64,000 bases of DNA, from positions 3,782,001 to 3,846,000 of the forward strand of contig CM052842.1 of NCBI GenBank assembly GCA_028534125.1. Reading direction: 5' to 3'. How positions within the stretch are numbered: the stretch's first letter is position 1; each line of letters begins with the position of its first letter. Shown one piece after another: positions 7,223-34,487 of this stretch. The translations under genes and the position numbers were made by a program. This DNA is from Lama glama (taxonomy: Eukaryota). The notes under the pieces are model-generated. The model was not told the DNA's origin. It did not search any database and was given only the letters and a program-made list of their open reading frames with translations.

Positions 7223-7276
7223 GGATCTCGAGGCCCCCCTGGATTCCCAGGCCCCCAGGGACCAGCCGGCCAGGAT
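7223..7276 (+). CDS. COL22A1: COL22A1 exon, 54 nt: GSRGPPGFPGPQGPAGQD
   Basis: ctttttcttcAG acceptor, six triplets, GTGAGT donor. Confidence 0.95.
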
Positions 7277-8452: not shown

Positions 8453-8497
8453 GGTATACCAGGAAATCCAGGAGAGAGAGGGCCTCCTGGCAAACCA
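8453..8497 (+). CDS. COL22A1: COL22A1 exon, 45 nt: GIPGNPGERGPPGKP
   Basis: Long pyrimidine tract + AG, five triplets, GTATGT donor. Confidence 0.94.
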
Positions 8498-8532
8498 GTA
8501 TGTCATCTAACTGTTCTGAATGAATATTGACC

Positions 8533-8965: not shown

Positions 8966-10092
8966 TCATGGCAAGGTCCCGACCAGCCCTTGCCCTGCCC
9001 TTTAGTTCAGTAATGTCCGTACCTCTTGGTTTCCCCTCTTTGTAGTAAAAGAGACATTCTCTCCTCTCTCCCTGTGAGAGCAGCGATGCTGCAACAGGCT
9101 GAGCAGAAACGGACAGCCCTGAGTGTCTGGTCCCGGGCCGTGGGGCCGCGCTCCAGCCCGCAGTTCCTCGTGCGCGGTAGAGTCACCTTCTAGGAACACC
9201 CACCCCACCCCAATTAACTCAGCAACACCAGAGAAGCCCCAAAGGCTCCGCCGAGGAACCAGGCACAGGGCGGCCCTCCCGGGGAGGGATGATGAAGAGG
9301 GACAGGTCTGGGTGAGCGAGGAGGCAGCGTGAGGATACAGGAGAAACGAGTCCACTGAAAGGTGCTACCCGAGGTGGGAGAGACGGTGGCAGTCACGACT
9401 CGGGAGGCTCAGGCCTCAAGGCTGCTTTCAGAAACCATTATGCAGAATCTTCACTGCAAGATGGATCTGAAAGGCCATCCGGCTCCTCTGTGAGCCTGGC
9501 TGCTGCAAGTTTCAGACAAGGACCCAAGGCACGGGGCCCCCAAGGCTTGAGCCTCTCTGCCTTCGGGGCCCAGGCTACGGGGCACATCAGAGACCCCGAG
9601 GGGTGGCCTGGTCCTCCTCGAAGGGTCCTGAGACCGTTCCCTGAAGGCCTTCTAGCGGGAGGAGTGAAAAGTCCTGCTGGAGGGTAGGGACAGCTTACTC
9701 ACACCCTCCTCCTCTTCTGTGGAGTCAGATTTACAGCAGCCAAATTAACCTCACAGAATCCACCTCGTTACCCAAGTGCAAGGCCCTGGTGCAGCGGCTG
9801 GAAGAGGAAGGTTCAGACCAGAGGCTGAAGAGGGTTCAGACGACTCCTGCCAAGTCTAGACCCTGACACCCCTGCCAAGAGAATTAAGCCAGCAGCGTCC
9901 AGCTGGCAGTGTGGACTAACCGTGACGTCTGACAGCTGGTCACCGGCAGAGCAGACTGAGAGAAGTAGAGACAGACAGAGAGGAGGTCTGTTTTTGACCA
10001 CCTTCAAATTCACTGCACACACAAACCCCCCGGATGGTCCCAGGGACGGCAGGGGAGCCCTCAGGGTCTCTATCTCACTAATCGGATGAGTC

Positions 10093-10663
10093 ATGTTTTC
10101 AGGGGTCCCAAGACTCCCCTCAGGCTCTCTGACTCACCAGGAGGACTCCAGGACTCAGGAGAGCGCCTCCACTCGGGACTGTGGTTTCTCACAGAGAAAG
10201 GATGCAGGTGAAGGTCAGCACAGGGGCGAGATGCTTAGGGCAGCGTCCCTGAGCGACGAGGCCCCTCCCCCAGGGAGCCGGCGCGGGCAGCCCTCGCTCC
10301 TCCTGGCGCTCACATGTCAGCAGAGGCACGTGGGTGACAAGTGCTCTGGAAAGCACCAAGTGTCGCCACTGAGGGTCGCTCCCCCAAACCTTGGTGTGCA
10401 GGTCACGTAGACGTGGCGAGCCTGCACGGCTGGCCTTGGTCTCCGTCTCCAGCCCTCCCAGGGGCCAGACTGATACCCCATGGCCCAGGCCCCCGCCATA
10501 GGTTTGGTCGTTAGCATAAGCCACCTGCCCGGCCCAAGACCCTGGCGAACAGAGGCACTCTTCTCAGGCAGGGCGTTCGTTAGGAGCCAGCAAGGGCCGA
10601 GCCTTTGTTTGGCACGGGCAGGGTTTGGGCAGCCCAGGCCTTCTGAGTTACCCCTTCCTGCAG
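10093..10663. mobile_element. ERVL LTR, MER77/MER68-like
   Basis: ggggtcccaagactcccctcagg...ggactcagga...ggtcacgtag...gcagggtttgggcagcccaggccttctgagttacccctt. Confidence 0.55.
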
Positions 10664-10744
10664 CCATCACCCCTCGGTGGAGATGGGGGCCCAGAGTGTC
10701 TCTCCAGCCTTGCGCCCAGGGAATTCCCGCGCCAGGAGCCCCCT

Positions 10745-11010
10745 TGCTGGGCTTGGTTCTCCAGAAGCAGAGCCTCTGGTGGGGATTCCCGTGCCAGCGA
10801 GTGAGCCAGGGGAGCCCTGCCGGGGTTGGAGAAAGCAGGACGGGATAGCGGAAAGGTAGTCAAGGATGTGGGTTCAGCGTGAATCTGCCCTCAGCCTGAT
10901 CCCGTGGGGAGCTCAGGTGTGGACGGCACCGCACAACTGGCCCATCTTGAGTCAAGAAGCTGCCCCTCTTCACCTCTGGGTCAGTCCGTAGTGGGCTGTG
11001 TGACCTCCCC
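10745..11010. mobile_element. ERVL LTR, LTR16-like
   Basis: ccagaagcagagcct...caaggatgtgggttcagc...ctcagcctgatcccgtggggagctc. Confidence 0.55.
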
Positions 11011-12852
11011 GGCCTTCCCGGCTGGCGCTCCAGGCAGCTGGCGGTACCCGGGAGGGGAGAAGGAGCCAGCAGGGCGCGGGCGCGGACTTCTGCACCCCAG
11101 CGCTTCCCGCTGCTGATTCCCTGCGCTCAGCATCCACCCGCCAGGTGGGGCCCGCTCCTCAGAGGCGAGCACGGCACTCCGCTCTGCATCCTGTGTCCAC
11201 GTTCAGGAGGCCACCGTCCCCGCACCGGCCTTGCTCCTGTGTATCCAGACCTATCTTGTGGGGCCTACAGAAGGGGGTCACAACAGACGTTAATTATCTC
11301 CAAGGCCACGCTGCCCCTGGACAGAAATTCACCCCTCGTTCTCTCTCCTTTTGAAACTGACGTCCAGCCCTGCTGCTCACTCTAATTATACAAAGGGTTT
11401 ACGTGACAACATAAAAATGTCCCAAAGAACACAGTGCCAGCACTGTGAAAAGTGTCCCAGTTTGGACTGTATGATTCATGTTACTAACTTCCCAGGGAAA
11501 ATAAAAAACTTCAGAAGGAAACCCCTCCGCCCCCTTTTAAAGTTCTAATCGATCAGCATTGCACAGGTCAGCCTTCCTCCCGAGGGTCGGTCTCAGGTAA
11601 CTGAGGACACTCTCGGTTTCGTCTTCAGCAGTTGTGACCTAAGTGAGCTCTCCCTGCAGGGCTGGTCGTCCCTTCAGCACGTCCAGACCCGACTCCAGCC
11701 CCGGCCTCTCCTGGGCCTCCTACCCTTGTGGTAGTCGGGGGGGTTGGTCGAACACTTGAGCAAACAGACGTACGCCCAGCCTCTGCCGAGTTATCCTGCA
11801 CAAACATACCCAAAGCCGCTGTCACATGGCTCTATTTAGCTGCAGGATGCGGCAGGAGCCCTGTGGGGTCAGGAGAGGAGGCAGCCAGGAAAACAGTCTT
11901 GGTTTCAGCCTCCGTAAGGCGCTAGACTGGACTCATACTTCATTAACCAGAACTCAGATTTATTCAGAAGAAATCAGCCACCAGCAGTCCGAGTGTGGCC
12001 GCAGGCTCCCCCATTCTAGAGGAATGTCGACCCCTTCCCTCTGGAGAACGGGTTCTCCGGGACTCCTTTTCCAGTACAAAATTTAGAAGTTTGCAAAGTA
12101 GCACGCCAGCCTCCAGTTCTTCTGAGAATCCTTTCTTCCCTTTAGGGTTTGCCTTTTAATTTCCATTTTCCTTCCCAGCTTTGTGTCCCTTACACCCCAG
12201 TATGAACCCAGCCCTCCATTCCATCTTGGGCTCCAGGTTGGCCCCATCGTGATGTACCACATCCCAGCTCACCGTTGTGAACGTGAATTCAGTGACCTGC
12301 AGACCCCGCACTCCTTCAGAGGCTCTGCGATTACGCCTGACTTCTGAAATCTTTCTGAAGTTAGAGACTTCTGACTCGTGATGACGAATGAAGTTCAAAA
12401 TGCTGTTTTACCTGGGACAGCTAAAGAAGTTACTTGAAATTCATACTAGATTGTGAATGACTGATAGTGACAGCTGTTACCCATCTGGGGAATACAGGAG
12501 GGTCGGCCCCCTTTGTCTTCTACAGTACCCATAGGACCTGTTGGTGTAGAGGGCAGTGTGGAGGAGGGACCACCAGGAGAAGAGAAGGGACCAGTGCAGG
12601 GAGCCTGGGGACCAGAAAGGCTGATGTTAGCTAGACTCAGGACCGGCAGTCTGTGCAGTCGCTGGCTCAGCGGAGTCTTCCCGTGGCTCCCGGCGTGGGG
12701 TGTGGACCGGGCTGCTTGCATCCTGTGCATGGTGTGGCCATGTCACGTGGCACAGCTTGCACTGTGAAGGCTGCGCACTGCCTGGAGGAGCACAGGGTAT
12801 ACAGAGTGTGGGCATGTGTGTATGTCTGTATTTATTTATTTTTCTTTGACAG

Positions 12853-12900
12853 GGACCCTCTCCACTACTGTCTCCAGGGGACGTAAATCTCTTGGTTAAG
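12853..12900 (+). CDS. COL22A1: COL22A1 exon, 48 nt, non-collagenous interruption: GPSPLLSPGDVNLLVK
   Basis: tttctttgacAG acceptor, AAG|GTAAAA donor; resembles recalled human GLSSLLSPGDINLLAK. Confidence 0.92.
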
Positions 12901-13061
12901 GTAAAATCATAAAATAAATGTGCATGCGTTGTGAAACTGGTCTTGAGGGGATTGGGGATTTCAGTAACGTGCTCTTTTTTGTGTCTGAACCACTGTGTTA
13001 AGAATATTAACAGTATTAGCAACACTGGCTGAGACCTCACCGTGTGTCAGCGATGGGCTAA

Positions 13062-13269
13062 ATGCACTGTCCAGGGCAGCAGCCACTGGCCACGTGTGTC
13101 AATTTAAATTTAAGATAACTAAAATTAAGTGCAATGAACAGTTCCAGTCCTCGGTCGCACTAGTCGCATTCCAAGTACTTAATCACCACACGTGGCTAGT
13201 GGCTGTTTCACAGGACAGTGCAGATACGGAGGATTTCTGTCGTCGCAGAAGGTCCTCTGGGCAGGGCTG
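13062..13269 (-). mobile_element. MER3 (hAT-Charlie DNA transposon MITE)
   Basis: Internal palindrome agccactggccacgtg...cacgtggctagtggct around an AT-rich core, with ctgtcc/ggacag ends. Confidence 0.75.
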
Positions 13270-14782
13270 TGCTAAACACTCCGTGGGTGTCTCTTACTTA
13301 CTGTCCACAGTTACTCTCTGATATTGGTACTGTTTCTGTTTTTGCTTTACTTGGTGGAAACCTGAGACACCGTGAGGGTCAGTGACTTTCTGGGAGTGGA
13401 ATCCACGCCCCACGGCTTCCAGTGGCTGGCCTGGCCCCCCGCAGGACTGCCTCCTCGAGCTCTCAGAGAGGGGCGTGGGCAGGGTCAGCCAGGTCGGGCG
13501 GGGGCCTCTGGCATGAGGTCCGGAGTGCAGGCGCGGGGGGCTGGAGCCCGTGGCCGGGGTGAGTTCAGACCTGAGTGCAGACTCAGCTCATTTTCAGGAC
13601 CACGTGCACTTTGCACGAGCAGCAGACGCCCTGAGCTGAGCGTGACTCTGCTGAGACAGGGCGGAGAAAGCTGGGTGCCCAGGACCCTGGCCGAGGACCT
13701 CTGATCTTAAATAGAGGAGACCCGGGAGAGGCTGTGAGCCTGACAGAGACAGGAGAAGACTCGTGTTCCAGGAGGAGCAGTCCTGCTGCCGCGGGTGTGG
13801 AGGACCCTTTTGCTGCCTCTGTTTCCAGCCTTTGTCTTCACTCTGGGTGAAGCTTGGCACTGGATTTTGTGTGATCAGCCCCTTCCTCACTTCCTGTATT
13901 CTGAAGACCACTTGGGTGGTGTCAGAAAACACCTGGTTCTTGCATGAAAACGGGAGGAGAAGGAAAGGGAGAAGAAAAGCTCCTCAGAAGCCGGGACGTG
14001 TGATCCTCTGCACGTCGAGCTGCCCTGAGGCAAAGTCATACTTTGTGTTCAAGATGCGCAGCAGTGGGGCGGTCTTTCCTGATTGTTCTTGACAAGAGGG
14101 AGGTTTGGTTTTTCTTTCACAACCAGGACGTGGCAAGAAATCATTGTCTATTGATTTAAGCCTTATTTATTACAGGCTTTTATAGCCTTGATGATTTTTT
14201 CTTAATTTCCGCCCCATTGAAAGGCACTGGGTTTGCATCAGCCCCTTTGCCCCCACCGAAGGATTTCAACTCAGGGTGTCCCAGTCTTCAGGGCAGTGAT
14301 GACAGCAGTGAGTCCTGCATGGGTTAAGACCGTTCTTCATGGCTGCAGCCCTGAGAAGGGCACTTAGTCGAATCAATACTTCTTACCTGCTGAAGGATGC
14401 AGCTGTGTTCATCAGAGCAGCCAGGAACCACGGAGGTCACGTGAGCGCCTACGTTCAGGGCAGCGCCTGGAATTCCTTGGTCCTGTGGAGTGTGCTTTGC
14501 CTGGAAACCCTGTAGACGGGCGCCTGGGCCATGTGGGTTTGCTCAGGTCTGCCATAGCTCCCTGTTGTGTAATCACCTGTTGCCACGTTGATGATGTGGG
14601 TTAAAGCTGATGGTCTGGTCCAGGTGGCTGTGGACAGGCCCCTCCCTTGCTGAGGATGCATCCTTTACTACAGAACACTTACCCCATTCTGAGAGTTGGA
14701 AAACTGCCTGGGTAGGAAGTTCAGCTTTAAGGAACTTGCGTAGCTGGAGCTGTGCCCAGGGAGGCCGTCCTCAGGGCTTCCC

Positions 14783-15282
14783 NNNNNNNNNNNNNNNNNN
14801 NNNNNNNNNNNNNNNNNNNNNNNNNNNNNNNNNNNNNNNNNNNNNNNNNNNNNNNNNNNNNNNNNNNNNNNNNNNNNNNNNNNNNNNNNNNNNNNNNNNN
14901 NNNNNNNNNNNNNNNNNNNNNNNNNNNNNNNNNNNNNNNNNNNNNNNNNNNNNNNNNNNNNNNNNNNNNNNNNNNNNNNNNNNNNNNNNNNNNNNNNNNN
15001 NNNNNNNNNNNNNNNNNNNNNNNNNNNNNNNNNNNNNNNNNNNNNNNNNNNNNNNNNNNNNNNNNNNNNNNNNNNNNNNNNNNNNNNNNNNNNNNNNNNN
15101 NNNNNNNNNNNNNNNNNNNNNNNNNNNNNNNNNNNNNNNNNNNNNNNNNNNNNNNNNNNNNNNNNNNNNNNNNNNNNNNNNNNNNNNNNNNNNNNNNNNN
15201 NNNNNNNNNNNNNNNNNNNNNNNNNNNNNNNNNNNNNNNNNNNNNNNNNNNNNNNNNNNNNNNNNNNNNNNNNNNNNNNNNN
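14783..15282. other. Assembly gap, exactly 500 N
   Basis: N run; the fixed length suggests a scaffolding placeholder. Confidence 0.99.
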
Positions 15283-15861
15283 TGAGAAGTGTAATAAATT
15301 GAAAAACCCAGAACAACATTTGTGGAGAGAAATTTTGCAGTACGTATCAAGCACCTGAGATATTATTGTACTCTGTCAAGTAGGTCATACTTTGGGGGAC
15401 CATGCTACAGAAAGAAGAAAACTGCTAGGCATGTAAAATAACCTACTGTAGATTTTTAAAACAGTTATAAGATTTGTAAGTCAACAGAATCATATATATT
15501 ATGGTACCCTTTTGGGTAGAGTGTATGTAAAATTTATGAGCATTTAATGCCAGTGTGGAAGATAGAAAATGTTTCTATTACCACAATTACTTACTACAGT
15601 TACGTATGTATATGGTGTGTTGATTGACAAGTGCGTGTGTAGAGAGAGATGAAAATTTTATTTAGGTAAGTAAACGACAAATATAAACATAAAAGAAGAA
15701 TGAGACTAAGACTGGCTTTGGTTAGTGATTATTTTTCTTCTAGTTTTCTGTAATGCCAAGAAGTCCTCTAGTGAACACTCTTTGCTTTAACAACGGTGCA
15801 ATATAGTTTTCTTTGCTTATTTTTGTAGTAAAGAAACTAGATTTTTTTAAATGCCACTTAC

Positions 15862-15915
15862 TGGGATGCCAGGTAATCCAGAGGGGCCTTGGGGGCCTGG
15901 AGGACCTTCTTTCCC
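15862..15915 (-). CDS. COL22A1: COL22A1 exon (inverted contig, 6th of 6), 54 nt: GKEGPPGPQGPSGLPGIP
   Basis: Minus strand: atcttttAG | ggg aaa gaa ... atc cca | GTAAGT. Confidence 0.93.
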
Positions 15916-17436
15916 CTAAAAGATCCAAGACACAAAGCACCATTAGCTCTCTGGGACTAGCTCTCTGTAAGTAAGTGATCTCACCCAGAACTGGTCTCGT
16001 GGGGTGGAGGAGCCTCAGCGAGGAGCGGCAGATGCTCCAGCCCACCTTGCTGCTTCCCAGGCATCGCCTCCTGCAGGGCAGGGAGGCACCCTGGACAGAG
16101 CATAAATGTGCCGGCTGGTGTGCACACTGGGACTCATCCTGGCCTTATTATATGGACTCAGGGAGAACTAGAGATTGGGAGGCACAATGGGAAGAAGATA
16201 TTGGAGCTTTGGGGTCCACAAGATCTGGGTCAAGATCCAACTCTGCACTTTGTCCCCAAACTGCCTGAGACTCAGGACCCTGCTGACAGCACCGACCACA
16301 GCACCCGCAGGTGTTCCGTACACAGGATTCAACACAAGTAAAGAACTGACTGGGACGCGTGTAACGGGCGGTTTTGTTACTATGGCCCTCTTATCCAGAG
16401 GTCCGCAAACTTTTTACCATCAGTGGTCGCTCTTAGTATCCCTTTCCCCCATGAAATCCACCTTGACAGATTGTGTTTACAAAACTGCATTAATTACTAA
16501 TTCATTTCCCATTTTATTCACCAAAAACACACATCACTGTCAACCAGAGCTTCTAAATCAGATGAAATCATTTTTATCATGACGGGCATTTTCATACCAT
16601 CTTGTGTCTCTACCAGGAACATTTTAGAATTCCTGGTAACTTATAATTCCCTGCCAGTTTCTTTCGTAATAAAAAATGCTGATGTCAGGTTTTCACATTC
16701 TAATCCATATGCCACACAAAATGAGATGTTCTTAAAGGTTGTGACTTTATCCCCTCCGAAGAAAAGCAAAAGCAAGTAATTTTGATATTTATTTCAGATT
16801 TATAGAGAGTTTATGTATGGTCATATAAAGGTCCAATCAGGGGACAAAAATCACTTCCTTTATTAAGCACTAGTTACACTCAATAAAAACTGAAGTAACT
16901 GAATTTTATTTCCATATGTAAAGAAAATGAAAGATATCACTATCATATCTTTAAGGTACTGAGAATTTTTTGTCATAGACCCTTGGGAACTGATGAAGAA
17001 AGGACAATGTTTTAGGTTCACCACTGGTTTGTGAAAACCTTTTCTCAAAAGTATCTTCACTCTGCATATCCACGTTGAGTGGCTGCTCTTAATTTTTTAA
17101 AAATGAAATGCTGTGTTTATGCATTTGCATTGATAATAATTTGACATAACCTGCATCTCTGTAGACTTTTGTTGCATAATATTCGGGATTGTTTATACAT
17201 ACTGCCACTTACACTGGTGCGAAATAATAATAATAAAACAAAAAATGTTTACCCTCCCCCATATCCCAAATATCTGCAAACACATTAATAAAAAAGGTGG
17301 ATTTTTGGTCAACTTTGGCCAAAATTCCATCACCATTAGGAATTTTTAAATATTGATAACAGAGCTTCCTAGATTCCTTCTTGGATGCTCATTATTTCAA
17401 ATATCCTAGTATGGAAACACTAGTGATCTGGGATAG

Positions 17437-17615
17437 GAGGTAGCAAGCTCCAGCTCTCAGCCTGTTTTTGCAAATAAAGTTTTACCAGAACACAGCCTTG
17501 ACTGTTAGCGTACACATTTTCTGTGGCTGAGTCACCTTTCCATGGCAGAGATGAATATTTGCAACAGAGATCATATAGCCCATAAGACTAAACTATTTAC
17601 TGTCTAGATTATTTT
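17437..17615 (+). mobile_element. MER58A-like hAT MITE
   Basis: cctgtttttgcaaataaagttttaccagaacacagcc...gcaacagagatcatatagcc...tatttactgtct. Confidence 0.65.
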
Positions 17616-17649
17616 TTGTTCCCATCTGGTGAACTGAAGACTCAATAAG

Positions 17650-18230
17650 GAGTCAGTATGGTTGTTCCTAAACCTGCTTTCACAACTTGTTTGCTATGGA
17701 AATTATATAATTTAATTATTCATTACGTAACCCAATGAAACTTAGGCGGAAAAAGAATGATCTTTTTATGCAAATTAAGACATTGAAAATAGATAAAGAT
17801 GAGACACTCACTATCTAAATAAATAGATAGCTGTTAGCTGTACCGCAAGACAGCTATAAAAGATTAGCAAAAAAATCCTAACAAACTAGGATTCTACATT
17901 CAAATTGCTTCACAAGTGTTGATATATACTCAAACCACCCTTTAAAAAAGCAACAAATAGTAAATGGGTGGATGTTCTTTTTACAAGAAAATGACGAGAC
18001 TCCATTCAGGGGAATAGAAATAAAAATGAGGGCCTTCAGTGTAAGGCAAAAAAACTGGCAAACAATTTTTATGGTTTAATTCAAAATGCAATGGAAATGT
18101 TTTAGATTTTTGTGTGTACTTTTTTCTTTTTCTTTTTTTTTTTTTCCTATGCCCCATTTAACTTTCTTTACTTCTGTTTTTTAACTACCGACACTCATTT
18201 GTGCTAAGGAAACTTCTGCTATATTCTGGA
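17650..18230 (+). mobile_element. Tigger13-like DNA transposon remnant
   Basis: Degenerate transposase-derived tract (aaagattagcaaaaaaatc...ggattctacattcaaattgcttcacaagtgt...). Confidence 0.45.
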
Positions 18231-19631
18231 TGGATGTTAATGGTGAAATATCAGGACCACGGACAGCTTCAAGCACAGTCATAACTCGCCAGGACAGAAT
18301 CAATGTCTTATTAAACGTAGTTTAATTCCTAGGAATACAATGATTTACATCTGGGCCCTACATCTTATTCTCCTTGGGCAAACGGTCCATTAGTTTTTAT
18401 CGGGGAAATCGTTTTCTGTCTGAGAATCAATAAAAAGCTACCTGCAGTATGGTTTGTATTTTATTCATCCTGGGACTTCTAGGTGGGCTGCTTCCAAAGG
18501 ATTGACCAGACGATGATCGTAGAGAGAACCACATGTCTCTTATTTTTCAAATTTAACATCCCTCCAGTCCCTAACCCAACCCTCCAACACAGAGGGTCAA
18601 TGTGGAGTAATAGAAGGAATGCTGAAATGGGAATTTTCAAACTGACTGAATTCCCAACTTGGATATCAATTTCCTATCTGTCCTTGAATGAGTCACCTCA
18701 CCCACCAGACCTTGACTTCCCCATCTGAGTAGGAGGAGGAAGATGTCCTGGGTGATCCCTAAAGTGCTCTTGACCCCAGGGTCCAGAGACACCAAGGCAG
18801 AGTTGACCTGTTTGCTAGCAATAGCCCTACCTAGAACGTGATGCTGGGATTCCTGTAGAGCAGGGCTGGCAGCTGGCTCCAACATCTCCTCACCGTGTGG
18901 CCTTGAACTGGTAGTTTCACTTCCCTGATGCCCAGTTTCTTTATTTATAAAATGGAGATAATCCTCGTGATGGGACAGTCAGATGAGATAATGGACCATA
19001 TATTCCTTTAGGGGAACATGCATGTAGTGACAGTGAGCACATGCCTGCCAAACTGAGGTTCACCTTGGCTTTATGGTGTTGAAACCAAGAGTGGTCCTGG
19101 CAGCTTCATGCAATGAATACAGTGCTGGTTTTTGAGATAAAAGCCTTGGGTTTCAACCAGCTCCACCTGTGTGGTTTCAGTACCTTGACCTGTGACTTCC
19201 TCTTTCTTAATTTCACTCTGCTTTTTGAACAACTGGATAACAGTGGCTACCTCCTGTCTGACATGCTGCCTGGCTCCCACCACAGGCTCAGGATGGCTTA
19301 GCACCAACACCTTCTGCTTGCCTGTGCCTGTTTCAGATGGAAACTGCATTGAACAGGAATAGAGAGATGGGGTTAAACCTTGGGCCAGTTTGAACTGGTT
19401 GCAAACTGAATCCTGGAATCACAGATTGCTAGGTCATTTCATCCAAGCCTTCATTTCAGAGGCAAGGTAACCAGGGCTCTAAGGGAAATCAACCCCTCCC
19501 GTAGTAACCAGCGGTGCATAAACCCTGGGGATGTGAGCCGCAGGAGGCAGGGGCGACCAGGGCAAACTCTTGGGGTTCTGGGAAGGTCCAAACACAAACT
19601 GAAGGTGGATCCCATCCACTGAGGAACTTAC

Positions 19632-19685
19632 TGGGGGTCCTTGGATTCCTGGCGGTCCAGCAGCTCCCGCAATTCCATCTGCTCC
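19632..19685 (-). CDS. COL22A1: COL22A1 exon (inverted contig, 5th of 6), 54 nt: GADGIAGAAGPPGIQGPP
   Basis: Minus strand: catcctttAG | gga gca gat gga att ... ccc cca | GTAAGT. Confidence 0.93.
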
Positions 19686-20169
19686 CTAAAGGATGGTAAA
19701 GCAGAAAGCCGGTTTGTTGTGTACTGAACAGAGATCTTTAGCACCTCCTCTTTGTGTGTGAGGCAACGCACAGATCTTGTATCCTGTGCCCCTTCCCAGC
19801 TGCCTGAACCGTTCAAGTACTCCCGAGATGCTTCTGCCCTCCGCATCAGGCTGGGATAGCCTCTGGGAATACAAAGATGTTGGGAGGACAGCAGCCATGT
19901 TTCATGAAAGGCCAAAGCATTCACCAGCCCATTACCCACAAGACAAGAGTAAATGGTCTCCCTTCAGAGTGGACATTTTCAGCTAACATCAGGGAACATT
20001 TCAGGGCAGACAACAAGAAACAGGGCAGACAACAAGAAACAAACAATTAGATTTATCTTCTAGGGAGATAAAGAAGACAGTTGCTTGTATCAACTCAGGG
20101 ATAAAGAGATGTACATATAGATAAAGGGGAGAGGAGTTCTACACAGGTAAGTGGTGTGAAGTGAGCCCC

Positions 20170-20482
20170 AGACGTGCTTCTGTCCCAGGGCTCTTGCACA
20201 TGCTGTTCCTACCGCCAGTAGTCTAACCCTCCATGTGTCAGGGCTCATATGCTGCCTTCCTCCACGTTGTGACTCAGGTGTCAGCTTCTCAGTGAGACAT
20301 TTTCTGCCTACCAGATCCAAAACTGAATGTCCCTGCTTCTCACCACCCTTTTCTGTTTTTATTTTTCTGTAGCCTTTACTTCCATTTGACATCTTAGTGT
20401 TTATCACCTTATTTGTTTATTGGGAACAAAAACGATGCCTTGGAAATAGTGCACACTCAGTATTTCTTGACTAGATGAATGC
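20170..20482 (+). mobile_element. L2 3' fragment
   Basis: cccagggctcttgcacatgctgttcct...cactcagtatttcttgactagatgaatg. Confidence 0.6.
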
Positions 20483-23400
20483 TCGCTGGCCGGGTGATGC
20501 AGGCAGAGGCCCCTTAGACTAGCCAATACGTTGCTTCCTACTTGCTTTGATCGAGTGGCATGAGGCCACCATGCTTCGGTTTCCTTACTGCCCATGCCAC
20601 ATGGAGGTGGGGGGTAAACGAGGCACTTCCTCCAACGTGCTTAGCATGGGACAGAGGGCACCAGCGAGGGGCACACCCTCCCAGAGCCAGAGCTCCTGGG
20701 TCGGCGTCCTGGGTCCCCGCTGACTAGCTGTGGGGCCCTAGGGAAGTTATTTCACTCCTCTGCACCTCAGTTCCTTTGTGAAACAGAGAAAAAGAAAAAA
20801 GGCAGCACCTATGTAACCTGAGTTGTTGAGAGAACTCAGTCAGGTAACACACACACAGAGTGAGCCCGCACCAGGCCACGTTAGGAGATCTCCACAAAGG
20901 GCTCTCCATCATCCTAAGTCTCGTGACAGTGGTCTTCTCAGTGTGTCTGTTGGCCAACCCAAGACCAGGAAACTGCAGACAAGAACTAGACACGGGATAA
21001 CGAACAAGCAAGCTCTCACAGCACTTCACTGATACCTTTCCAGCAGTCTGTAGTCATTTTACCTACACTTATTGGGCTCCTATGTTGTACCAGGTGCTGG
21101 CAAAGGTTTAGGGATACAGAAATGACCACACGGTGGTCTTAGACCTCAAAGAAACTTGGTATAGCTGAAGGAGAAGTGTCTTAATTTTCATGTAAAACAA
21201 ATCCTGGAGACAAGATGCAGTCTGATTTGCCTCCATGCTTTTCACTAGGTGATGACCCAGCAAAAGTTCATGAAACAAAAAGATGTTGATAATATTTAAA
21301 CAAACGGCCTACAAGGTTCGTGTTTCCCTGTACCTGGGCTGCTGCAAAGGAAAATCACACATCTAGTCCAAACCTAACGGAACAATCGAGCTTCTACTCC
21401 TAACCTGGATTCTTCTACGTAATTTTGCCGAAAGCTTCTGGCATCCTGGACTCTGGAATCTAGCTAAACTAGCAGGTTAGAAACAGGGTAAGGGTTTTAC
21501 CTGGAAGAAGAATGCAGACTGAGCACCAGAAAATAGACTACCAAAGAAAGGAGCTTTGTCTGTTGGCATCGCTATCTAACACACAATAAACACTCAAAAA
21601 ACAATGCATGAATGATGAAGAGTGGTCATTTCCTGCTCTTGAGTTCCTATTGCATGGCTGACCCCTAACCCTGAGTGGGCAGCTGACTCAGCGTCTATTC
21701 CCAAGGGCAGTTAACAGTCCAAGGCAGGGCACAAAGTGGAAGCTCATACACATCTGCCTGGTGCTGAAAGAACACACCAACCAGCTGAAGGCAGACAAGC
21801 TGGCTTCTGCTTGTGACTGTGAATCTCAGATTCGTCATCAAACAGGAGAATAAGCCATTTGCTACTGTTGTCATCAGAGTTCGAAGTCGCGGCAGCTCCC
21901 AACGGGAAGAGAACAGGGCTCCACTTGGGCTGGGATGTGTTTTAGGCTTTGGAGCTACCAGGGTGGGAAGAGGATGGGGCTTTAACTCAGTACTTTTTAT
22001 GAGCTCTTCAGCTGCTTGGCTGTGCAGGGAAGCTACAGCCATCATGGTATGAAATGAGTCATTCAAGAACCGGGCTTTTTTATATGCTAGTATTTCCCTC
22101 TCAAATGTCCCTTCCTCACTTCATGCCGATGCCTTTTCCCGCTATCGGTACTGCTGCCATCTTGATCAGTCTTTCTCTTTGCGGATCAGATGCCACAAAA
22201 TCCAGTAACACACACAAACACAGTGCAAAGAAATTCCCTGCATGAAATTACACATTTTGAAACATATGCAGAATTTCACAAAATCAAACGATAGCAAACG
22301 GATCATTTCCCTACCAGGTCATTCACAAATGTGCAGACGGCAGAGTTGGAACAGTTAAGACCTGAGGCCGAGAAACTGAAAAGGATGTTAACAGCAAAGG
22401 CACTAGAAAGAGGGGGATGGAACGAGCTGAACATGAGAGATCTCAGGCAGGCTCTGTGGGCAACTCGGAAAGCTTCAATACTTTTGTAGACGATTTACCT
22501 TTCCACGATTTTGGTGGAAAAATCTGTCATGAACTGAAAGATGTTGTTTCATGTTCTCATGATTTTATTGAAAAAAAATACACTTAAAACAACTTGATTT
22601 ATTTTAAGAATTAACACATAGTTACAATTAGTAGCCAACTAGACGCCGTTGAAAAGGAGACACAGCAAGCTTAATTTCATACATTCTAACTTCACGATCC
22701 TTCATTATTTACGACAGGCTGGTCCCTATCTGAAGCAGGTTCCCTTTCAGGGTCCTTTAGCCATTACCAGTGACCTCTTCTCTGCAAGGTCTGGGAGACC
22801 AGGGCTCCTGAAGAACCCATGGGAAACCCCAGGGGACCAGGCCTGGCTTGGTGAGGATGCTAATTCCCACAGCCCGTTACCATGGCTACCGCGGGTAACC
22901 ACCACAGTGGACCGAGCAGAGGAGGGACAAGAGTAACCCGTGGGCCGCCTAGACCAAAGGGAGGCAAGGTTGCTGAGAAGAGCATCAGTCAACATCAGCA
23001 CCACGGCCACTCTAAGAGCAAGGAGAACACTTGCCCTGGGGGGTGGGGTGGGGCAGGGGAATAAATGGGGTGATACTATGGTGGTTGCAGATACACTGAT
23101 AACAAGGGCCTTAGAATGCTAATGAATGAACTGTTGAAAATAGTCATGCTGCACAGTAATAATAATCCGTAGTTATTATTACTGTTATCAATTATAGTAA
23201 ATCCAAGCAAGTCTGAGCTTGCATAAACACCCTGTGATTCCCAGAGCCTCTTACTATGGGACAGGTTTCTATGGGAGAGGGACAGTTGCTTCTCCATTTC
23301 TTACCTAAGATTCTAACCTTGGAATTATCCCCAACTCCCCCCTCCCAAGCTGGATAAAGAATAGTAAGTCGATCCTGTCCATCCCTTCCAAAGCCTCCCG

Positions 23401-23625
23401 TCCCAGGAGCATTCTAATTACACTGTCCCTCAATGCTGCTCAAGACCCTCCGTGCTCACCCCACATGCCTCTGGGACTGCACTTCCAGTTCACCCCTGGA
23501 CACCTCTCAGGTCAGCCCAATCTTTCAAATAAGAGGTACGTCAAGGTGACCGCACCTCCAGTGAGTGTGGACGTGTGTACTGATGACAAGGCCAAAAGAG
23601 GAAGGGATTAAAAATAATTACTTAC

Positions 23626-23679
23626 CAGTGGCCCTGGGTTCCCTGGGGGCCCCATGAAACCTGGAACTCCTGGATGACC
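23626..23679 (-). CDS. COL22A1: COL22A1 exon (inverted contig, 4th of 6), 54 nt: GHPGVPGFMGPPGNPGPL
   Basis: Minus strand: gttttcctAG | ggt cat cca ... cca ctg | GTAAGT. Confidence 0.93.
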
Positions 23680-24436
23680 CTAGGAAAACACAAAGCAATT
23701 CTTTTAAATGATTCGTAAAAAGCTTTTCACTTATGAAAAGTGAAGTTTTTCACTTTCAGACAACAAGCCAGAATCTATCTTCTAACTCAGATAACAACCC
23801 TGGAGATACATACTTTTATGTATTTCAGTAGGTGGTTGAGGAAGTATCTAACAGTGCTTACAAAACCAAACCTATCCTGGACCTGGATCTGCTTCACAAT
23901 GATGTGGAGGAAGCAGGTGTGGGGGAAGCGGTGAAGGGTACAGAGGGACAGAGGAGTGGCCCCAGAGCTGGAGGGCGCTGTGCCTGGGCGACAAGTGCCA
24001 GGCGGACACATTTTATTACACTCTCTTCTTTTTATGTACGTTTGAAGTATCCCATAGCGAAAATTTAAAACAAATAAATACATGCACACACCATTTATAT
24101 CCACAATGGAAACTGTTAGGTTAACTGAACGACAGAATCTATGAACCTATTACAGTTATTATAAGAGATTCATGTCCCCACGTGGAGAGGAGTCCACGTG
24201 TATTACAGGATGAGCCACACCGGCTACAGGGCAGAGTGCACCGCGTCTCACGTTTAGCTTAGCACAACAATGTTATAAAAGCGAACAAACCACCATGAAA
24301 GAAGTGATTCTCCTGAGTCCCCCCCATCCCTCCGCAGGGAAACACAAGCTGCAGTGACGCTCAGCAGAGAAGCACTGCCGTTCACAACTCCCTCCTATAA
24401 GAATAACCCAAACACATGTTGTTTTTCAAGATACAG

Positions 24437-24932
24437 ACGGAACTCTAGCCGAGTCTGTCGTTCCGACCTTGCGCGCAGCTCTGATGGCACCGCCTCCGCG
24501 CCTCCGCTCGCGCGCCCCGCCCCCTCCGGTAAGTGAGGCCGGGTTCGCGCGTTACTCGCCCCGCATCGCAGAGCCCGGGGCGGCGCCAGCGCGGGGCGCC
24601 CACTGAGACGGACGGAAGGCTCAGAAGGAAGGAGGAAGGCCAGGCGGGAGGAGGGAAGGAAAAGCAAAGCGGGGAAGGAGTGGCAGCAGCACAGCCCAAG
24701 CACCACAGCCAGTCTGAGTGCAGGAAGGCCGCTAGCGGCTGAGCAGCGGCGCTGCGGGGTGAGCGGCGGCGGCGCCCCGGGCTGGACGGGAGCCGCGCTC
24801 GGCGCGAGGCGGCGCAGCACGTCAAGGTCAGCGGCGCCCCCCCGAGGCCCCGGGAGGAGAGGCCCCAGCGGGGAGGGGGTCTGCGAAGCTCTCGGCTGCA
24901 GACGGGGGAGTCTCGCGGGAGGCAAGAAGGGG
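24437..24932. promoter_or_regulatory. Intronic CpG-island-like segment (~500 bp)
   Basis: Very GC- and CpG-dense block with a GC box (24514-24523), set abruptly in an AT-rich intron. Confidence 0.7.
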
Positions 24933-25234
24933 CATTTGGCATTTTGTGATGAATGACCACCATCTCAGTGAGCAAGAAGCTCTGAACGAGCACAACATTT
25001 TAAAACATTTTTTTAAAGAAATGACAAGACAGGATCCTCAGATAATGGGGGAAGGGGAGTGTGCCAGTGAACCAAGGTGGAAACCACAAAAACATGATTA
25101 AAAAAAATCCTACCGAAGACAAGAGGCAAGAAATGATTTCAGAAATGAATTTGGTGATCTGGGAATAAAAGTTACCTAGAAAAAACAGTGATGTTTCTTC
25201 AGGGTGGATGGTTCCTCATAAAATAAGTTTTTAC

Positions 25235-25288
25235 CTGATCGCCTTTCTGCCCAGTCTCACCATCTGCACCACGCTCTCCTTTACTTCC
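25235..25288 (-). CDS. COL22A1: COL22A1 exon (inverted contig, 3rd of 6), 54 nt: GSKGERGADGETGQKGDQ
   Basis: Minus strand: tttttctcctaAG | gga agt aaa ... gat cag | GTAAAA. Confidence 0.93.
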
Positions 25289-25799
25289 CTTAGGAGAAAA
25301 AAAGAAAGAAGGACCATTACTGAAAATCTGGCTAGAGCTTACCTTGCAAAAGAAAAATTTTGGCATTACATCCTTCCACTTAATCAATCACTCATTCTTC
25401 ATTAGTCTCTTGTCAAGACAGTGCTGCAGGCCAGGCAGGATGTCAGCAGATGAGAACAGTTAGGCCTAGTTGAGGGACTGTTGGTGCAATGGCTTAATTG
25501 GGCTGTAGGGGGCAGGATGGGATCAGCAGAAAATGGGGCTGGGGATCCAGGCAAAGCCCACTTCACTGACAATCTTTTGTGTCAGCCCGAGAATCTGAAT
25601 TTACTTGTAGGCTCTGGAAACCAGCAGAAGGATGTAGGACCACCCTAGGCTTCAGGAGGGTGCCTCAAGCTGCGGTGCAGGGTGGGCTAGAAGGTCCAGG
25701 ATGAAGAGATGGGGTCAGTTAGGAGGAAACTGGGATGTTACAAGTGTGGGAAGGAAAGGAGCAGAGTCAACACGGTGTCTGTGGGCATCGCAGAGTAGA

Positions 25800-25916
25800 C
25801 CAGCACCACCACCGCCCCCTCCTCCTCGTCACCACCGTCACCACATCGCTCACCCCCAGCACCACTACCGCCCCCTCCTCCTCACATCATCATCATCTTC
25901 ATCATCACAGTCATCA
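25800..25916. repeat. Degenerate (CAC/CCT/CAT)n low-complexity tract
   Basis: caccaccaccgcc...cctcctcctc...catcatcatcat. Confidence 0.8.
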
Positions 25917-26819
25917 AGACACCACGTGCAACCTACCAAAATTATAGTTTCACAGACCAACTCGAAGTAATATTCAAAGGTTCCAATCTATCTTAATGGT
26001 CACCTATTTGGCCCCATGTTTCCCATGCTAACAAGTGTATTTCAGTAAAATGCTATTAAACAAAAACATCCCAGTTCCTTTAAAAGAATGCACTACGCAG
26101 TAGAAGAAGTCACTGGGGGTTAGCCGCCTTGGCTCTGGTGCCAGGCCCGGCATCCCTTGTCTTTGCGGCTTGCAGAAGATTATGCTCTTTCTTCACTCTG
26201 TTCATCCGGTAAATGAAGGATAGGGGTGTATGTCAATCTATGAAGGTCCTTCCAGCTCCAGAACCCGACAGTTCTCTCACTGAAACATCACACCCACCCT
26301 CTTCCCATCCCGACTGCGGTACCACATCAGCAGTTCATGGGGACAGTGACTACCGAACAGCACGCTGGCTGCCCCCCTGCAGTGTACCGTGATGGTTAGG
26401 TGATCTCGTGCCTGCAGAGCGCCAAGTGCTGTTGTTTAGAGGAGAAAAGCAGTAGGTTCAGAGGGGAAGAGCATTTATTCCAACATGTTTGCATGTAATT
26501 ATTTCTACTGTTTTTAAGTCGATAAAGCCAGCACACTGTCTGCAGCCACTTTGTAATTTCAACGAAAAGCAGTGACATAGAACAGCACACTGGTTCTCTG
26601 ACATTAAGGACAATTGCCTTAAAAGTAAATGGTTTTCTTTCAATTTCCAGCCCTCAGTTTGGCCTTAGAGTGGTTTCAACCCTCATCTAACAACTAAAAT
26701 GTCAGCAGCTCAAGGCTGGCCACAGTTGTCCTTGTCTCCTCCACCGCAGCTGGGAATCAGCACAAACACGGCCACCCCCAAGCCTGACTCAATTCCTTCC
26801 AGAAAAGAGGGCTGACATT

Positions 26820-27110
26820 TACAGAGCCCCTACTCTGCCGGGCACTCTGCCAGGGCTTTCGCATGAGATCTCATTCCATGTTTTTCTTTGTTTATATCCC
26901 GAGCTGGTGCAAAACAACATTTACTAGTCTATGTTATCTCATTTAGCCAAGACGACTGCTTGACGTAGAGGTTATTATCAGAGTGTATTAGTAAGAAACC
27001 TGAAGACCAGAGAGGTTAAGTCATTCGTCTGAGGTCACAGAGCTAATAAAAAACAAGATGTGGCATCAAATCCAGATCTGTCAGTATCCAAACTGCCTGC
27101 TCTGACCAGG
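26820..27110 (-). mobile_element. MIR SINE
   Basis: ctactctgccgggcactctgccaggg...agaggttaagtcattcgtctgaggtcacagagcta. Confidence 0.65.
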
Positions 27111-27360
27111 TTACTTTCCTGGTTATTTTCCTAGGTTGTGACGCCTTGTCCCACTGGTTTTATGATGTGCAGATCGCCGGATTTAGAGTCTGATTGATCA
27201 TGCTCTGGGAACCATTCTATGCACAGAGAATACAGCCATCAAAGACAGATTAGAAACAAAAAAAACAACCTGCCCCCCTGGAGCCCACATCCCAGGGTCA
27301 TTACTAGTTTGCTACTTGGCTATCTCAGTTCTCTTCAGCAGATGTTTACTGAGGATCGAC

Positions 27361-27760
27361 TGTTAGGGTTTTGTTTTTCCTGTTGAAAATCAGGGAAGGA
27401 ACTCCCACCACACCCCTTTTATTAGAGCATTTACTTTAGAAAACTCGTCACTGTGAGTTCTTTCTCTGTCGCTTTGAAATGTATGTAAGCCTTTTCCAAA
27501 GCTAAGTAAGCCTTTTGCCAGCTCTAGGTCCCAGGAAAGTCTTTCTCAAGGACCTGGGAACATTGTTTTGAAATGTAATCATCAAGGAAAATGAAACCCC
27601 ATCTCCCAGGTTCTGCAGGAAGGGAGGAGCCTAACTACAGGGCCCCTTGTTCCAAGCTACAAACTACCTCCAGTTAAAAAGACGTCAGAAGTTTGTTTTG
27701 TTTTGTACAAAGCTAATTCACTAAAGCAGACGGCCACCCCGCTTACCAGGTGACCTTGTA
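27361..27760 (+). mobile_element. ERV1 LTR, MER34-like
   Basis: Starts TGTTAG; tagagcatttactttagaaaact...ctttgaaatgtatgtaa...tctttctcaaggacctggg...gaaatgtaatcatcaagga. Confidence 0.55.
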
Positions 27761-29980
27761 GGTCTTTCTTCTCCAGCACATCAGGCCCTAAAAGGCATGG
27801 CCCATATCTGACCTAACTCTATACCTCCTGACTTGGAAGGGAGCTGTTCAAGGCCATGCTTGGTGAGAACCTTCCAGGATCAAGGCAGCTGTAGGTGAAA
27901 AGACTTCTCTCCTGAAGACAGCATGGACTAAATGGCTTTGGGCTGCCTTCTGGGCAGAATGGGATTCCAGGACCTTTTCTGGCAGAGGAGGTATGACTCT
28001 GCCTCCCAGACTCGTGGGCTCCAAGCGGGGGCTTCTGCTCATTTAGTGTCTCCAGTCCTACAGCTCCCGTTACATGACTGGTGCACATGTGGGTGAGAAG
28101 AAAACCATGTTTTTCGTGAAGGACAGAATAGTCAAACTGGAAGAGGCTTTAACATCTGACTCTGCAGAAAATTATGTGTCCAGAAAATCATGTTCTGATT
28201 ACCATCTTGCTTCTTCTTCCTCTACATGGCTCATAATCAAACAGCAGCCACTACCTCAGACCCTAACCCGTAGAGTCAGTGTCTATGCGGTCTGAAAGCT
28301 CTAGATCGGAGCTCTGCAGTTGATGATGTCAGTGACCTCCCCAGACCCGGCAGCCAGAGGGAACAGCTGTAAATCTGCAAGACAAATCTTAGGGAAGCTG
28401 GTTTCCCAGATGCTGGATCACAAGCTGCAAACAAGCAAATCAAACCTTCCTGATGATGCATGTGACCAGTGGCCACCCAGGACCTTTGGTTATAAAAGGA
28501 CATTAACAGTGACCATAGATGCTCCATTATGAGTAGCATTTTCAATTTACAAATTCATCTTCGTGCCCCCAGGTCTGGCAGCGATAAGTGAAATTCAGCA
28601 GAAAGGAAACGAAACAGTCCTCTGTTCTGTTTCCTGGAGATTGGCTTCGGATGAACCAAGAGCACAGAGACAGGTTTGAGCTTGAAGCCAAGAACCAAGG
28701 CAAGCCGGTGAGTCCTCTGCAACTCATTCTCCCAACAACAGGCGGTCGTAAGGGGAAGCTGTTACAGGATCATTACCAGAGGCAGCTGGCTTTGCCCTCC
28801 TTGGGAGCTGTCCTTGGTGCTGGCGCTGGAGGTAGCGTTGCTGGGGTCTAACAGCAGGCTACTACCGTGGGGCATAGTAGGGATCACCTTGGCTATACCA
28901 CCCACTAGTTTCATAATTCTAGCACTTAATCTTGCCAAACTCTAGTTTCCTAGTCTGTAAGGTGGAACAGTATCTCTGCCTCCCAGGATGATGCTGACCT
29001 TTGCAGGAGGTAGTACTTAAAGCAGGTAAACTGGCCTTAGCTCTTAGCACACCAGGTATCTCACCTACTGGCTGCAGCTCCCTGGGAGTTCATTCTGCAA
29101 GTGAACCCTGAGAACTTCTCAAGGTCGCCATGGACTCCCAAGTGGAGAAGCAAACCCCTGTCTCTCAGATACAGCATTAATTTGTGTTCTTTCTCTGGAT
29201 GGAAGCTTTCTTTGGCTTTCTCTTGATTATGTAAAGGAACAAATCTCCCTTGAAGGGAATTATAGAAGAACAAAGGCAGAGCCATTGTCCCAAGACATCA
29301 GCACTTCAAGCGGGGCTGGGCTGATAGAGAAAATAACTCCTACTTAGTGGAGGGAACTCCTTATCTGTTTAATTGATTTGCTTTTGTTTCCCTGAATAAA
29401 GGCCATTCCCTGGCAGGGGCAGCACCCAGCAGCCAGTAAGCTGACAGCGAAGACTGCATACTTAAGGCTCAGTTGAAATTCCCCACCTGCAGAGTCCTTC
29501 AGCGAGGAGTTCAGCCACCACCTATGACCCCAGAAAGGGAGGGTAAGACTCAGTTAATAGCCCCTCAGTTAATAGCCCCGAGGCAGCTATGCTTTGTGCA
29601 GTCTCTTAACCTAACGCTGCACCAGGGCAGTCTCTCGTTCCAGCAACACTGAGACCTGATGCCTGCAGTTTGTGAAGCAGTAGTGTCGGGTCTGTCAAGA
29701 CCCTACGAAACTTCAAAGTCTATCGGACAACAGCAAACGCTAGATGTGGTGACCCGCCAGCCAGGGCCTGGGTGACCTGGTGGTTCTCCACCTGGATACC
29801 CGACAGGTGGCTGTCACACCACAGTATTTCTGTTTGCTTCCTTGCTTTTAACAATAGTGAGTGAGTTTTCTGATTTTAGAACCATCATTCCTCTACACTG
29901 GACGTCACTCGTCCTCAAACTCAGGTTACCCAGTGAGATGAGCAGAATAATTGTACACAGTTTTATGAAGGCTCACTGAC

Positions 29981-30034
29981 CTGTGGTCCAGCTATTCCTG
30001 GGGGCCCTGGGAGGCCTCTGGGACCAGCATCTCC
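29981..30034 (-). CDS. COL22A1: COL22A1 exon (inverted contig, 2nd of 6), 54 nt: GDAGPRGLPGPPGIAGPQ
   Basis: Minus strand: gatgctacAG | gga gat gct ... cca cag | GTCAGT. Confidence 0.92.
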
Positions 30035-30067
30035 CTGTAGCATCAACAACAAGAATGAGTGTCTGGA

Positions 30068-30345
30068 CCAGAACAGACTCAGACATAGAAAACAAACTAT
30101 GGTTACCAAGGGGGAAAGTGGGGCGGGGGATAAATTAGGAGTTTGGGATTAACAGATACACACCACATATAACATAGATAAACAACAAGGACCTACTGTA
30201 CAGCACAGCGAAGTAGAGTTAATTTCTTGTAATAAGTTATAATGGAAAGGGATCTGAAAATATATGTATGTATATGTATAACTGAATCGCTTTGCTGTAC
30301 ACCTGAAACTAACATTGTAAATCAACTACACTTCCACAAGAAAAA
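30068..30345 (+). mobile_element. 5'-truncated artiodactyl-type L1 3' end with A tail and a decayed 17-bp TSD
   Basis: acagactcagacatagaaaacaaactatggttacc...ctttgctgtacacctgaaactaac...aatcaactacacttc + A-rich tail; TSD at 30051-30067 and 30346-30362. Confidence 0.85.
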
Positions 30346-30688
30346 AAGGATGCGTGTTTGGAGCCCACACCCAGAGTTACAGCAAGCCACCCCCTTACAC
30401 ATCTAGTCACTGATTTCCCACTGAGATTTCCCTGTCCCCTTCCCACCCCCAGCGTGTGTGAGCTAAGGGGGCAGACGAGTGGTGGCGACAGGAGCACGGC
30501 TATGTGTTCATGGGCATGACCCACCGCTACCGTGCTAGCTGGCGTGCTAGCCAGTCCCCAGGACGACCCCAGTGACCTCTGCCCCCACAGCCACACCCCT
30601 GAGTAGAACCCTCCCGTGTACCAGCGAGGCAACTCTGGGGTCTCCAAGATGATGCAATGGTAAAAACTGTTTCCTATTTTCTCCTTAC

Positions 30689-30802
30689 CTTCTTCCCTTC
30701 TGCGCCTTCTCTCCCTGGCTTTCCTGGGAGACCTTTGTCCCCTTTAAAACCTGGCAGACCAGGGAGGCCCGGGGGGCCAGGGGGGCAGTCATTGCACATG
30801 TC
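30689..30802 (-). CDS. COL22A1: COL22A1 exon (inverted contig, 1st of 6), 114 nt: [38 protein letters not shown]
   Basis: Minus strand: tttctttcAG | gac atg tgc aat gac tgc ... aag aag | GTAAGG. Contains CxxC and continues directly from the + strand exon ending at 12900. Confidence 0.95.
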
Positions 30803-32467
30803 CTGAAAGAAAGAGCAAACACATGATACAGTTACTGGCAAAACAAAAGGTGGCCCAGAGCTCCTCCTCTCCAGACAGGAGGAAGCCAGCAAATGAGGAA
30901 AGAGCAAGCAGGTGGGTTGAGTCATTACCCAAATAGCTTGTGTCAAGCTTTGCATTTTTCTCTTAGTCCTAAATTAGATTTCAGTGCTGATATATCTGGA
31001 TTACTACCCCATTTCTCCCTGCTTCTGGCCAAACGGCTGAAACACAGCCCAAGACAAAGATGTCAAAAGTGCATGTACCAGTATCTGTGAACATCTGGAG
31101 ATACTCACAGTACAGGTTTAATGCAAACACTCAGCATTGTTTACAATAGCACGCCCTGTCCCTAAGGCTAGAGAGCGTCCTCGGTCTCATGGGTTTGCCC
31201 AAGTGGTTCCTGAACAAAGCAGCAAGACAAAGAAAGCAACAGGTGCCCGCCCTCAGGACTCTGCTGCCTGGCACATGCGAACCTCCCCAGGCCTGGCATT
31301 CCTCTCTGCCCACAGTGGGCATTTAACAAATGTTCCCTGGAAAGGAGCTTTGCTCTCCTTCTTTGAGGCAGGCAAGTCCCCAGAGTGAATGTAAAGCCCT
31401 CAGCCCAGGGAACAGGTTTTCTAACTTGTCTGTGTCATCCCCAGATCTTACAGCTTGGAGCACAGCAAACACCAAATAAAACTCACGGGCTTGACCACAC
31501 CCCTGCCCGTCTCACCCCCCAGGGGCTTGGGTCGCTCCCTCCACGGCCTTCTCGCTAACCCTCCCTCTCTTCCTCCCCCACTCTCTCCTTTTGATGAAGG
31601 TGTCAGCTCCTTCCCAGTGCACTTGGCTATTTCTATTCATTCATGTGTTCACTCAGCCGCTCCCTCAATGAAAGAGCATTTACTTGCAAAGCAACCACTC
31701 TGTCAGGCACCGTGCCTCTCCGCTCTGAGACCACAGGAGCACGCATCCTGAGGGCTCTTGGTCCCGCGGCACCCACGGACACGCAACACACACACTGACA
31801 AGGGCCTCTGGGATGCTGCCCTGGAGCCACCTGCAGAGTGTCCTGTAGGACAAGGTGCACGTGTTCACATTCAGTGAGGTGAGCTTTCAGGCGACCTGGC
31901 ATTCATCTTGGTGTCTAATGCAGGATGGACGGGCTTTTTCCATCAAAAAAGCAACTTTGAACAGTCTACCTTCCTTTGACAAGCTCACTCCTGCTCAGTC
32001 TCTGCAGACTCTTCAGCTGTGTCCTCCTCCAGGACGTCCCCCAAGAACTGGGGGTGTGTTCCTGCTTCCACGGACCCAGGAATTCCCGCTGTGGCAGCAC
32101 GTGACCCACTGTTGATGTGGTCTGTTTATAGCTCCATGCCCTCCCCACCAAGAAAAGGAAAGTGTGACTCTCCGAGAACAGCGGTAGAGTCTTTATGCAT
32201 CCAATTCAGAGCAAATAACCTACTGCAGAGCATGAGTTCCGTCAGTGGGTGAGCCAGCCGACCCGACTGACCGACCAGTGACCTGCTGGCATCCAGGGCC
32301 ATCTTCCTTAGCAGGTGGTTCCAGAAGCTGGCTGAATTTTTAGGGGAAGGGTGAGGAGCATCAAATGTTTTCGCTGCTGCCTTTTGTTTGGAGGCATGGC
32401 AGACGTGGGAGGAACTCACGTATTCCCAGACCTTCTCTTATAGTTCTTCAAAATGAGACACATCCAC

Positions 32468-32967
32468 NNNNNNNNNNNNNNNNNNNNNNNNNNNNNNNNN
32501 NNNNNNNNNNNNNNNNNNNNNNNNNNNNNNNNNNNNNNNNNNNNNNNNNNNNNNNNNNNNNNNNNNNNNNNNNNNNNNNNNNNNNNNNNNNNNNNNNNNN
32601 NNNNNNNNNNNNNNNNNNNNNNNNNNNNNNNNNNNNNNNNNNNNNNNNNNNNNNNNNNNNNNNNNNNNNNNNNNNNNNNNNNNNNNNNNNNNNNNNNNNN
32701 NNNNNNNNNNNNNNNNNNNNNNNNNNNNNNNNNNNNNNNNNNNNNNNNNNNNNNNNNNNNNNNNNNNNNNNNNNNNNNNNNNNNNNNNNNNNNNNNNNNN
32801 NNNNNNNNNNNNNNNNNNNNNNNNNNNNNNNNNNNNNNNNNNNNNNNNNNNNNNNNNNNNNNNNNNNNNNNNNNNNNNNNNNNNNNNNNNNNNNNNNNNN
32901 NNNNNNNNNNNNNNNNNNNNNNNNNNNNNNNNNNNNNNNNNNNNNNNNNNNNNNNNNNNNNNNNNNN
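32468..32967. other. Assembly gap, exactly 500 N
   Basis: N run; same length as the first gap. Confidence 0.99.
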
Positions 32968-33189
32968 AGTACTAAAGTAGAAGGTGAAACATGTAAAATT
33001 CTCAGCTGGGTGACAGGGACATTGTACGTGGCTCCCTCAGTTGGTGCTTTGGCCACGATTATATGGGAGGAGAGCAACCAGGTTCCCTGCCTCTGAGCTG
33101 GCTGGATTTGGGATTCAAGTGTCTTCAGGGAAGATGCTGGGACCCAGGCAGGCCCTGTCCCCCTCCAGGGAAAGGGCACTGGCCTATTT

Positions 33190-34442: not shown

Positions 34443-34487
34443 GGCTTCAAGGGACACACGGGCGATTCTGGCCCCCCTGGCCCCCGA
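34443..34487 (+). CDS. COL22A1: COL22A1 exon, 45 nt: GFKGHTGDSGPPGPR
   Basis: Consensus branch point GACTAAC, pyrimidine tract, AG; GTAAGT donor. Confidence 0.95.

Follow-up and report, generated by a model that had tools for sequence, protein, structure and literature searches.

The window analysed here is a stretch of 64,000 nucleotides of the llama (Lama glama) genome (GenBank assembly GCA_028534125.1, contig CM052842.1, positions 3,782,001 to 3,846,000 of the forward strand; G000:C27:3782001-3846000), and it carries the end of the collagen gene COL22A1. The parent assembly amounts to 2.35 Gb in 1,072,352 pieces. There are only two runs of N in the window, each exactly 500 long, and they delimit three contigs: A (1-14782), B (15283-32467, 17,185 bp) and C (32968-64000). 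Exons encoding Gly-X-Y repeats lie on the + strand in contigs A and C and on the − strand in B, and the orientation of B is the subject of this report. The six exons of B follow one another in descending order on the − strand; all of them are bounded by AG/GT, in phase 0, divisible by three in length and free of stop codons, and together they encode 128 residues. The initial annotation had described six COL22A1 exons on the opposite strand between exact 500-N gaps, and the exon coordinates and N runs confirm that description.

The assignment to COL22A1 comes from sequence comparison. The exon at 45473-45652 is 90% identical to the rodent collagen XXII model P0011, while none of the 119 other matches listed exceeds 66%; the terminal exons likewise match P0011. 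The exon with the CxxC motif (30802-30689) shares 23 of 38 residues with a fish collagen XXII model, P0088, from residue 566 onwards. On this similarity the gene is COL22A1. Collagen XXII is described as a FACIT collagen of tissue junctions (PMC6307901). The +1 frame of the CxxC exon matches P0011 at 28 of 37 residues; the database models P0011, P0121 and P0122 show a shifted frame across parts of the collagen domain and look like faulty gene models.

The change of strand in B is accompanied by a change in base composition. Composition skew is positive in 28 of 34 1-kb bins in the flanks vs 2 of 17 in the block (p = 3e-6, a value computed on bins that are not independent), and the sum of TA and GC skew changes from +0.07 in A and C to −0.07 in B. 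Since the skew flips together with the exons, the strand flip in the block is not due to chance. The sense strand of B is the minus strand, as would be seen equally in an assembly artefact and after a recent real inversion.

What separates these two cases is the sequence that belongs in the gaps. The assembly was searched with the four contig ends, and the overlaps between unplaced scaffolds were then walked. At each contig end the search found very small unplaced scaffolds in pairs, which share exactly 199 bases with the end and extend beyond it, and the members of each pair diverge immediately past the overlap. On analysis of these overlaps, the paired scaffolds show the allele "bubble" pattern of a de Bruijn graph. 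The 199-bp overlap is presumably the mark of an assembler run at k = 200. A total of 118 loci were fetched, and 11 of them were excluded from the graph (four stretches of the window's own scaffold, four distant repeat copies and three partial copies of scaffold L054). Of the 107 pieces used, 103 lie on the two gap paths, and the other four are collinear with the corrected locus at 96.4-99.1% identity.

Gap 1 closes when contig A in + orientation is followed through 14 small pieces; every step is an exact overlap of 199 bases, and the path ends in the reverse complement of B. The sub-graph of this gap consists of 47 pieces and 192 paths, all of which are 2,037-2,044 bp long. Two node-disjoint paths link 14782 with the reverse complement of 32467; each allele is thereby followed across the whole gap, and no exit from the path was found among the fetched pieces. 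The walks meet inside an old interspersed repeat (pieces L064-L077; G000:C644245, C718490 and neighbours), which may be a long terminal repeat relic. A false join through this repeat was considered and rejected. Of 481 candidate matches to the repeat in the assembly, 40 were scored; 18 of these, all from this locus, are 98-100% identical, and identity in the other 22 does not go above 81%, the best copies elsewhere reaching 77-81%. The other copies are thus too distant for an exact overlap of 199 bases. Furthermore, no 199-mer is repeated on the + strand within the window.

Gap 2 closes from the reverse complement of B, through 20 pieces, to C (15283 to 32968). Its sub-graph comprises 56 small scaffolds and 1,536 paths of 7,562-7,568 bp. 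For the two joins made in the scaffold itself, from A to B in + orientation and from B in + orientation to C, no path exists among the 107 pieces.

The reason why the contigs end where they do is visible in the same pieces. All four contig ends stop one base short of a heterozygous site, and because the alleles differ at the first base beyond each end, it is heterozygosity that broke the contigs. The two alleles of gap 1 differ at 22 single bases in 2,037 bp (10.8 per kb), and there are 38 single-base differences in gap 2 where both alleles were fetched. Local heterozygosity is high at both gaps, with gap 1 at about 11 single-base differences per kb.

When B is turned round and both gaps are filled, the corrected locus is 72,599 bp long and 20 of 20 checked exons stand on one strand and in order. 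The feature coordinates are given in Table 1. In this arrangement an intron of 5,584 bp separates the last exon of contig A from the CxxC exon. With its 24 exons, the corrected chain spans 6321 to the stop codon at 53912 and has 578 codons without an internal stop; the chains that result from flipping B alone (542 codons) or from skipping the block on the + strand (414 codons) are also open. The initial annotation had noted that the exons ending at 12900 and starting at 34443 are both in phase 0 and that skipping the block stays in frame, which agrees with the open + strand chain of 414 codons as against 578. It had also put the loss in such a model at about 164 residues. The total holds, though not from the six exons by themselves: these account for 128 residues, and the other 36 come from two 54-nt exons hidden in gap 2, which lie outside the window and on unplaced scaffolds only. 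An unplaced 535-bp scaffold (L109, G000:C102267) represents the second allele at the site of a hidden exon. Since gap 2 hides these two exons, flipping B alone would not restore the gene, and an annotation of the chromosome-scale scaffold would overlook both of them.

Table 1. Features of the COL22A1 locus. Positions are those of the window unless an unplaced scaffold is named.
Feature	Position	Strand	Remarks
Last COL22A1 exon ahead of the block	12853-12900	+	48 nt, phase 0, non-collagenous interruption
Gap 1, 500-N placeholder	14783-15282	.	True content: 2,037-2,044 bp of intron between 14782 and the reverse complement of 32467
Contig B, almost certainly set in reverse in the scaffold	15283-32467	− (= COL22A1 sense)	Sole contig between the 500-N gaps; overlap paths
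COL22A1 exon with CxxC motif	30689-30802	−	114 nt; AG/GT
COL22A1 exon	29981-30034	−	54 nt
COL22A1 exon	25235-25288	−	54 nt
COL22A1 exon	23626-23679	−	54 nt
COL22A1 exon	19632-19685	−	54 nt
COL22A1 exon	15862-15915	−	54 nt; in the corrected locus, the two gap 2 exons come next
Gap 2, 500-N placeholder	32468-32967	.	True content before 32968: 7,562-7,568 bp back to 15283, with two 54-nt exons
Hidden COL22A1 exon, gap 2	L110:310-363 (G000:C43137)	+	54 nt, AG/GT; unplaced scaffold of 623 bp
Hidden COL22A1 exon, gap 2	L054:1429-1376 (G000:C983693)	−	54 nt, AG/GT; unplaced scaffold of 5,145 bp
First COL22A1 exon past the block	34443-34487	+	45 nt, phase 0
Last COL22A1 coding exon, ending at the stop codon	53722-53912	+	Corrected exon chain

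Taken at its full length, the corrected chain shows an interrupted Gly-X-Y domain with a CxxC interruption, open to the stop codon. The likeness to collagen XXII as described (PMC6307901) lies in this long interrupted domain, and after correction no difference from that description was found; the comparison covers the part of the gene in the window, the N-terminal vWA and thrombospondin domains being encoded outside it. Five consecutive exons across gap 2 align to residues 639-725 of P0088 in an ungapped alignment, with four to six non-glycine identities per exon, which suggests modest homologue support for the chain. Best-position mapping of single exons is mostly uninformative because Gly-X-Y sequence is of low complexity, and protein searches turned up no clean full-length mammalian collagen XXII.

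We conclude that B is, almost beyond doubt, a contig placed backwards, probably when a short-read assembly was scaffolded with Hi-C data, and that the COL22A1 of this animal is in normal order and open to the stop codon. The apparent inversion is not a real feature, and the gene end is ordinary and intact. The initial annotation had already favoured a mis-oriented contig over a real inversion, and unplaced pieces of the assembly, which close both gaps, bear this reading out. The verdict rests on the overlap paths and not on the homologues.

Several points weigh against this conclusion. No path through the gap 2 graph avoids L054 or L110, since retrieval of the second allele was incomplete at those pieces (L041, L109); in the middle part of the 5,145-bp L054, two places were probed. 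The overlap graph and the scaffold derive from one assembly, so the evidence is limited to the animal that supplied the short reads. Homologues back the exon order weakly; the fish models are incomplete and of low complexity. When whole chains were scored against nine fish models, the corrected chain was best in four, the chain with B merely flipped in one, and a chain with the block exons in reversed order in four; the + strand chain that skips the block scored lowest in all nine. Finally, the 500-N gap, which would be the size used by 3D-DNA, was not found as a default in the literature searched.

The alternative that survives best, and still a very improbable one, is that the inversion is a real allele in another animal, for instance the Hi-C donor, or that it segregates in the species, the contig having been oriented to that allele. 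If true, an intragenic inversion allele of 17-27 kb would deprive a collagen of the myotendinous junction of 128-164 residues, the CxxC interruption among them, without shifting the frame. Nothing speaks positively for such an allele; the skew flip fits it as well as it fits an artefact. It would require both breakpoints to fall in two gaps that heterozygous sites already explain, and misorientation is common for contigs of the size of B at the published rates cited below. The repeat search found no inverted repeats of at least 20 nt at the ends of B, and a tandem repeat search found nothing there; three inverted pairs of 21-30 nt occur within 12900-35000, none of which links both ends of B, the gap fills having been compared only in part. 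In 14 of 24 public runs listed (five studies), the share of the words of 29500-32467 that is present is 0.91 or more, a figure that attests presence only and is silent on orientation.

Fainter still is the chance that the assembled animal itself is heterozygous for a real inversion and that the scaffold represents the inverted haplotype. The second allele was traced through only part of gap 2, which leaves some room for this; however, a breakpoint in gap 1 would be required, and there both node-disjoint allele paths connect 14782 with the reverse complement of 32467, without a branch leading away among the fetched pieces, so that this possibility is largely refuted. As for a separate nested antisense collagen gene or a duplicated gene fragment on the − strand, suggested by the intact exons on the opposite strand, the closed overlap paths refute it and its probability is negligible: the exons of B are those absent from the + chain and fill its gap in frame, the sequences searched at both ends of B have one place on a large scaffold, and neither a start nor a stop exon was seen in B.

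For the misplaced contig, the following origin can be proposed. Dense heterozygosity split both sites into many allele pieces of 200-900 bp, and these pieces, together with the exon-bearing piece of 5,145 bp, stayed unplaced, two steps that can be read from the recovered scaffolds themselves. Because the pieces were left unplaced, the real stretches behind the 500-N gaps measure 2.0 kb and 7.6 kb. The 17-kb contig would then have been retained as lying above a threshold of about 15 kb and put in its right position, with too little signal to orient it; the wrong orientation would have been taken and the fixed 500-N gaps inserted. On such a scaffold, + strand gene prediction could finally splice 12900 to 34443 in frame and drop 164 residues. 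The 199-bp overlaps, the 1,072,352 contigs and the 500-N gaps together suggest that the assembly was produced by an assembler with k = 200 followed by 3D-DNA.

This origin has parallels in published accounts of scaffolding. For 3D-DNA on short-read human contigs, a local orientation error of 4.3% is given for a 15-kb threshold, and short contigs fare worse (PMC7672694); another report gives correct scaffold orientation as 91.64%, with the errors coming mostly from short scaffolds (10.1101/254797). The case of contig B resembles the local orientation errors set out in the two reports in that one short contig sits in the right place with its orientation wrong relative to both neighbours. Its length is just above the 15-kb threshold of the first report (PMC7672694), the piece of 5,145 bp and smaller pieces are unplaced, and gene structure is disturbed. 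Unlike the errors described there, the present one is demonstrated without a reference genome, by means of unplaced overlapping pieces of the same assembly. Heterozygous "bubbles" are described for de Bruijn assemblies of the DISCOVAR de novo type (PMC4779211), and the pairs and quartets of near-identical small sequences found beside the contig ends, which differ by single bases or small indels, are similar to them. In the account given there, the final assembly contains the bubbles in flattened form, whereas here many remain as separate scaffolds.

Two further observations concern the end of the gene in contig C. An in-frame collagen exon of 36 nt at 41939-41974 (+) has a GC donor, the sole non-GT donor among the 20 exons checked. 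A trinucleotide microsatellite of about 19 units (54112-54169) lies 200 bases past the COL22A1 stop codon, probably in the 3′ untranslated region.

In itself the locus is biologically unimportant, being an ordinary gene end. Its consequences are for annotation. The + only chain omits 128 + 36 = 164 residues yet stays in frame, and since every exon here is in phase 0, a false COL22A1 model built on it would look valid; a flip of the contig would still leave 36 residues missing. All small pieces fetched overlap by exactly 199 bases, and more than one million small pieces are retained in the assembly. It is therefore probable that the released sequence suffices to reconstruct the assembly graph, against which other 500-N joins could be audited. 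Because the overlap graph is preserved among the unplaced scaffolds, the walk needs no other data, and it provides a reusable test in this genome wherever an apparent inversion, a missing exon or a gene loss falls at 500-N gaps.

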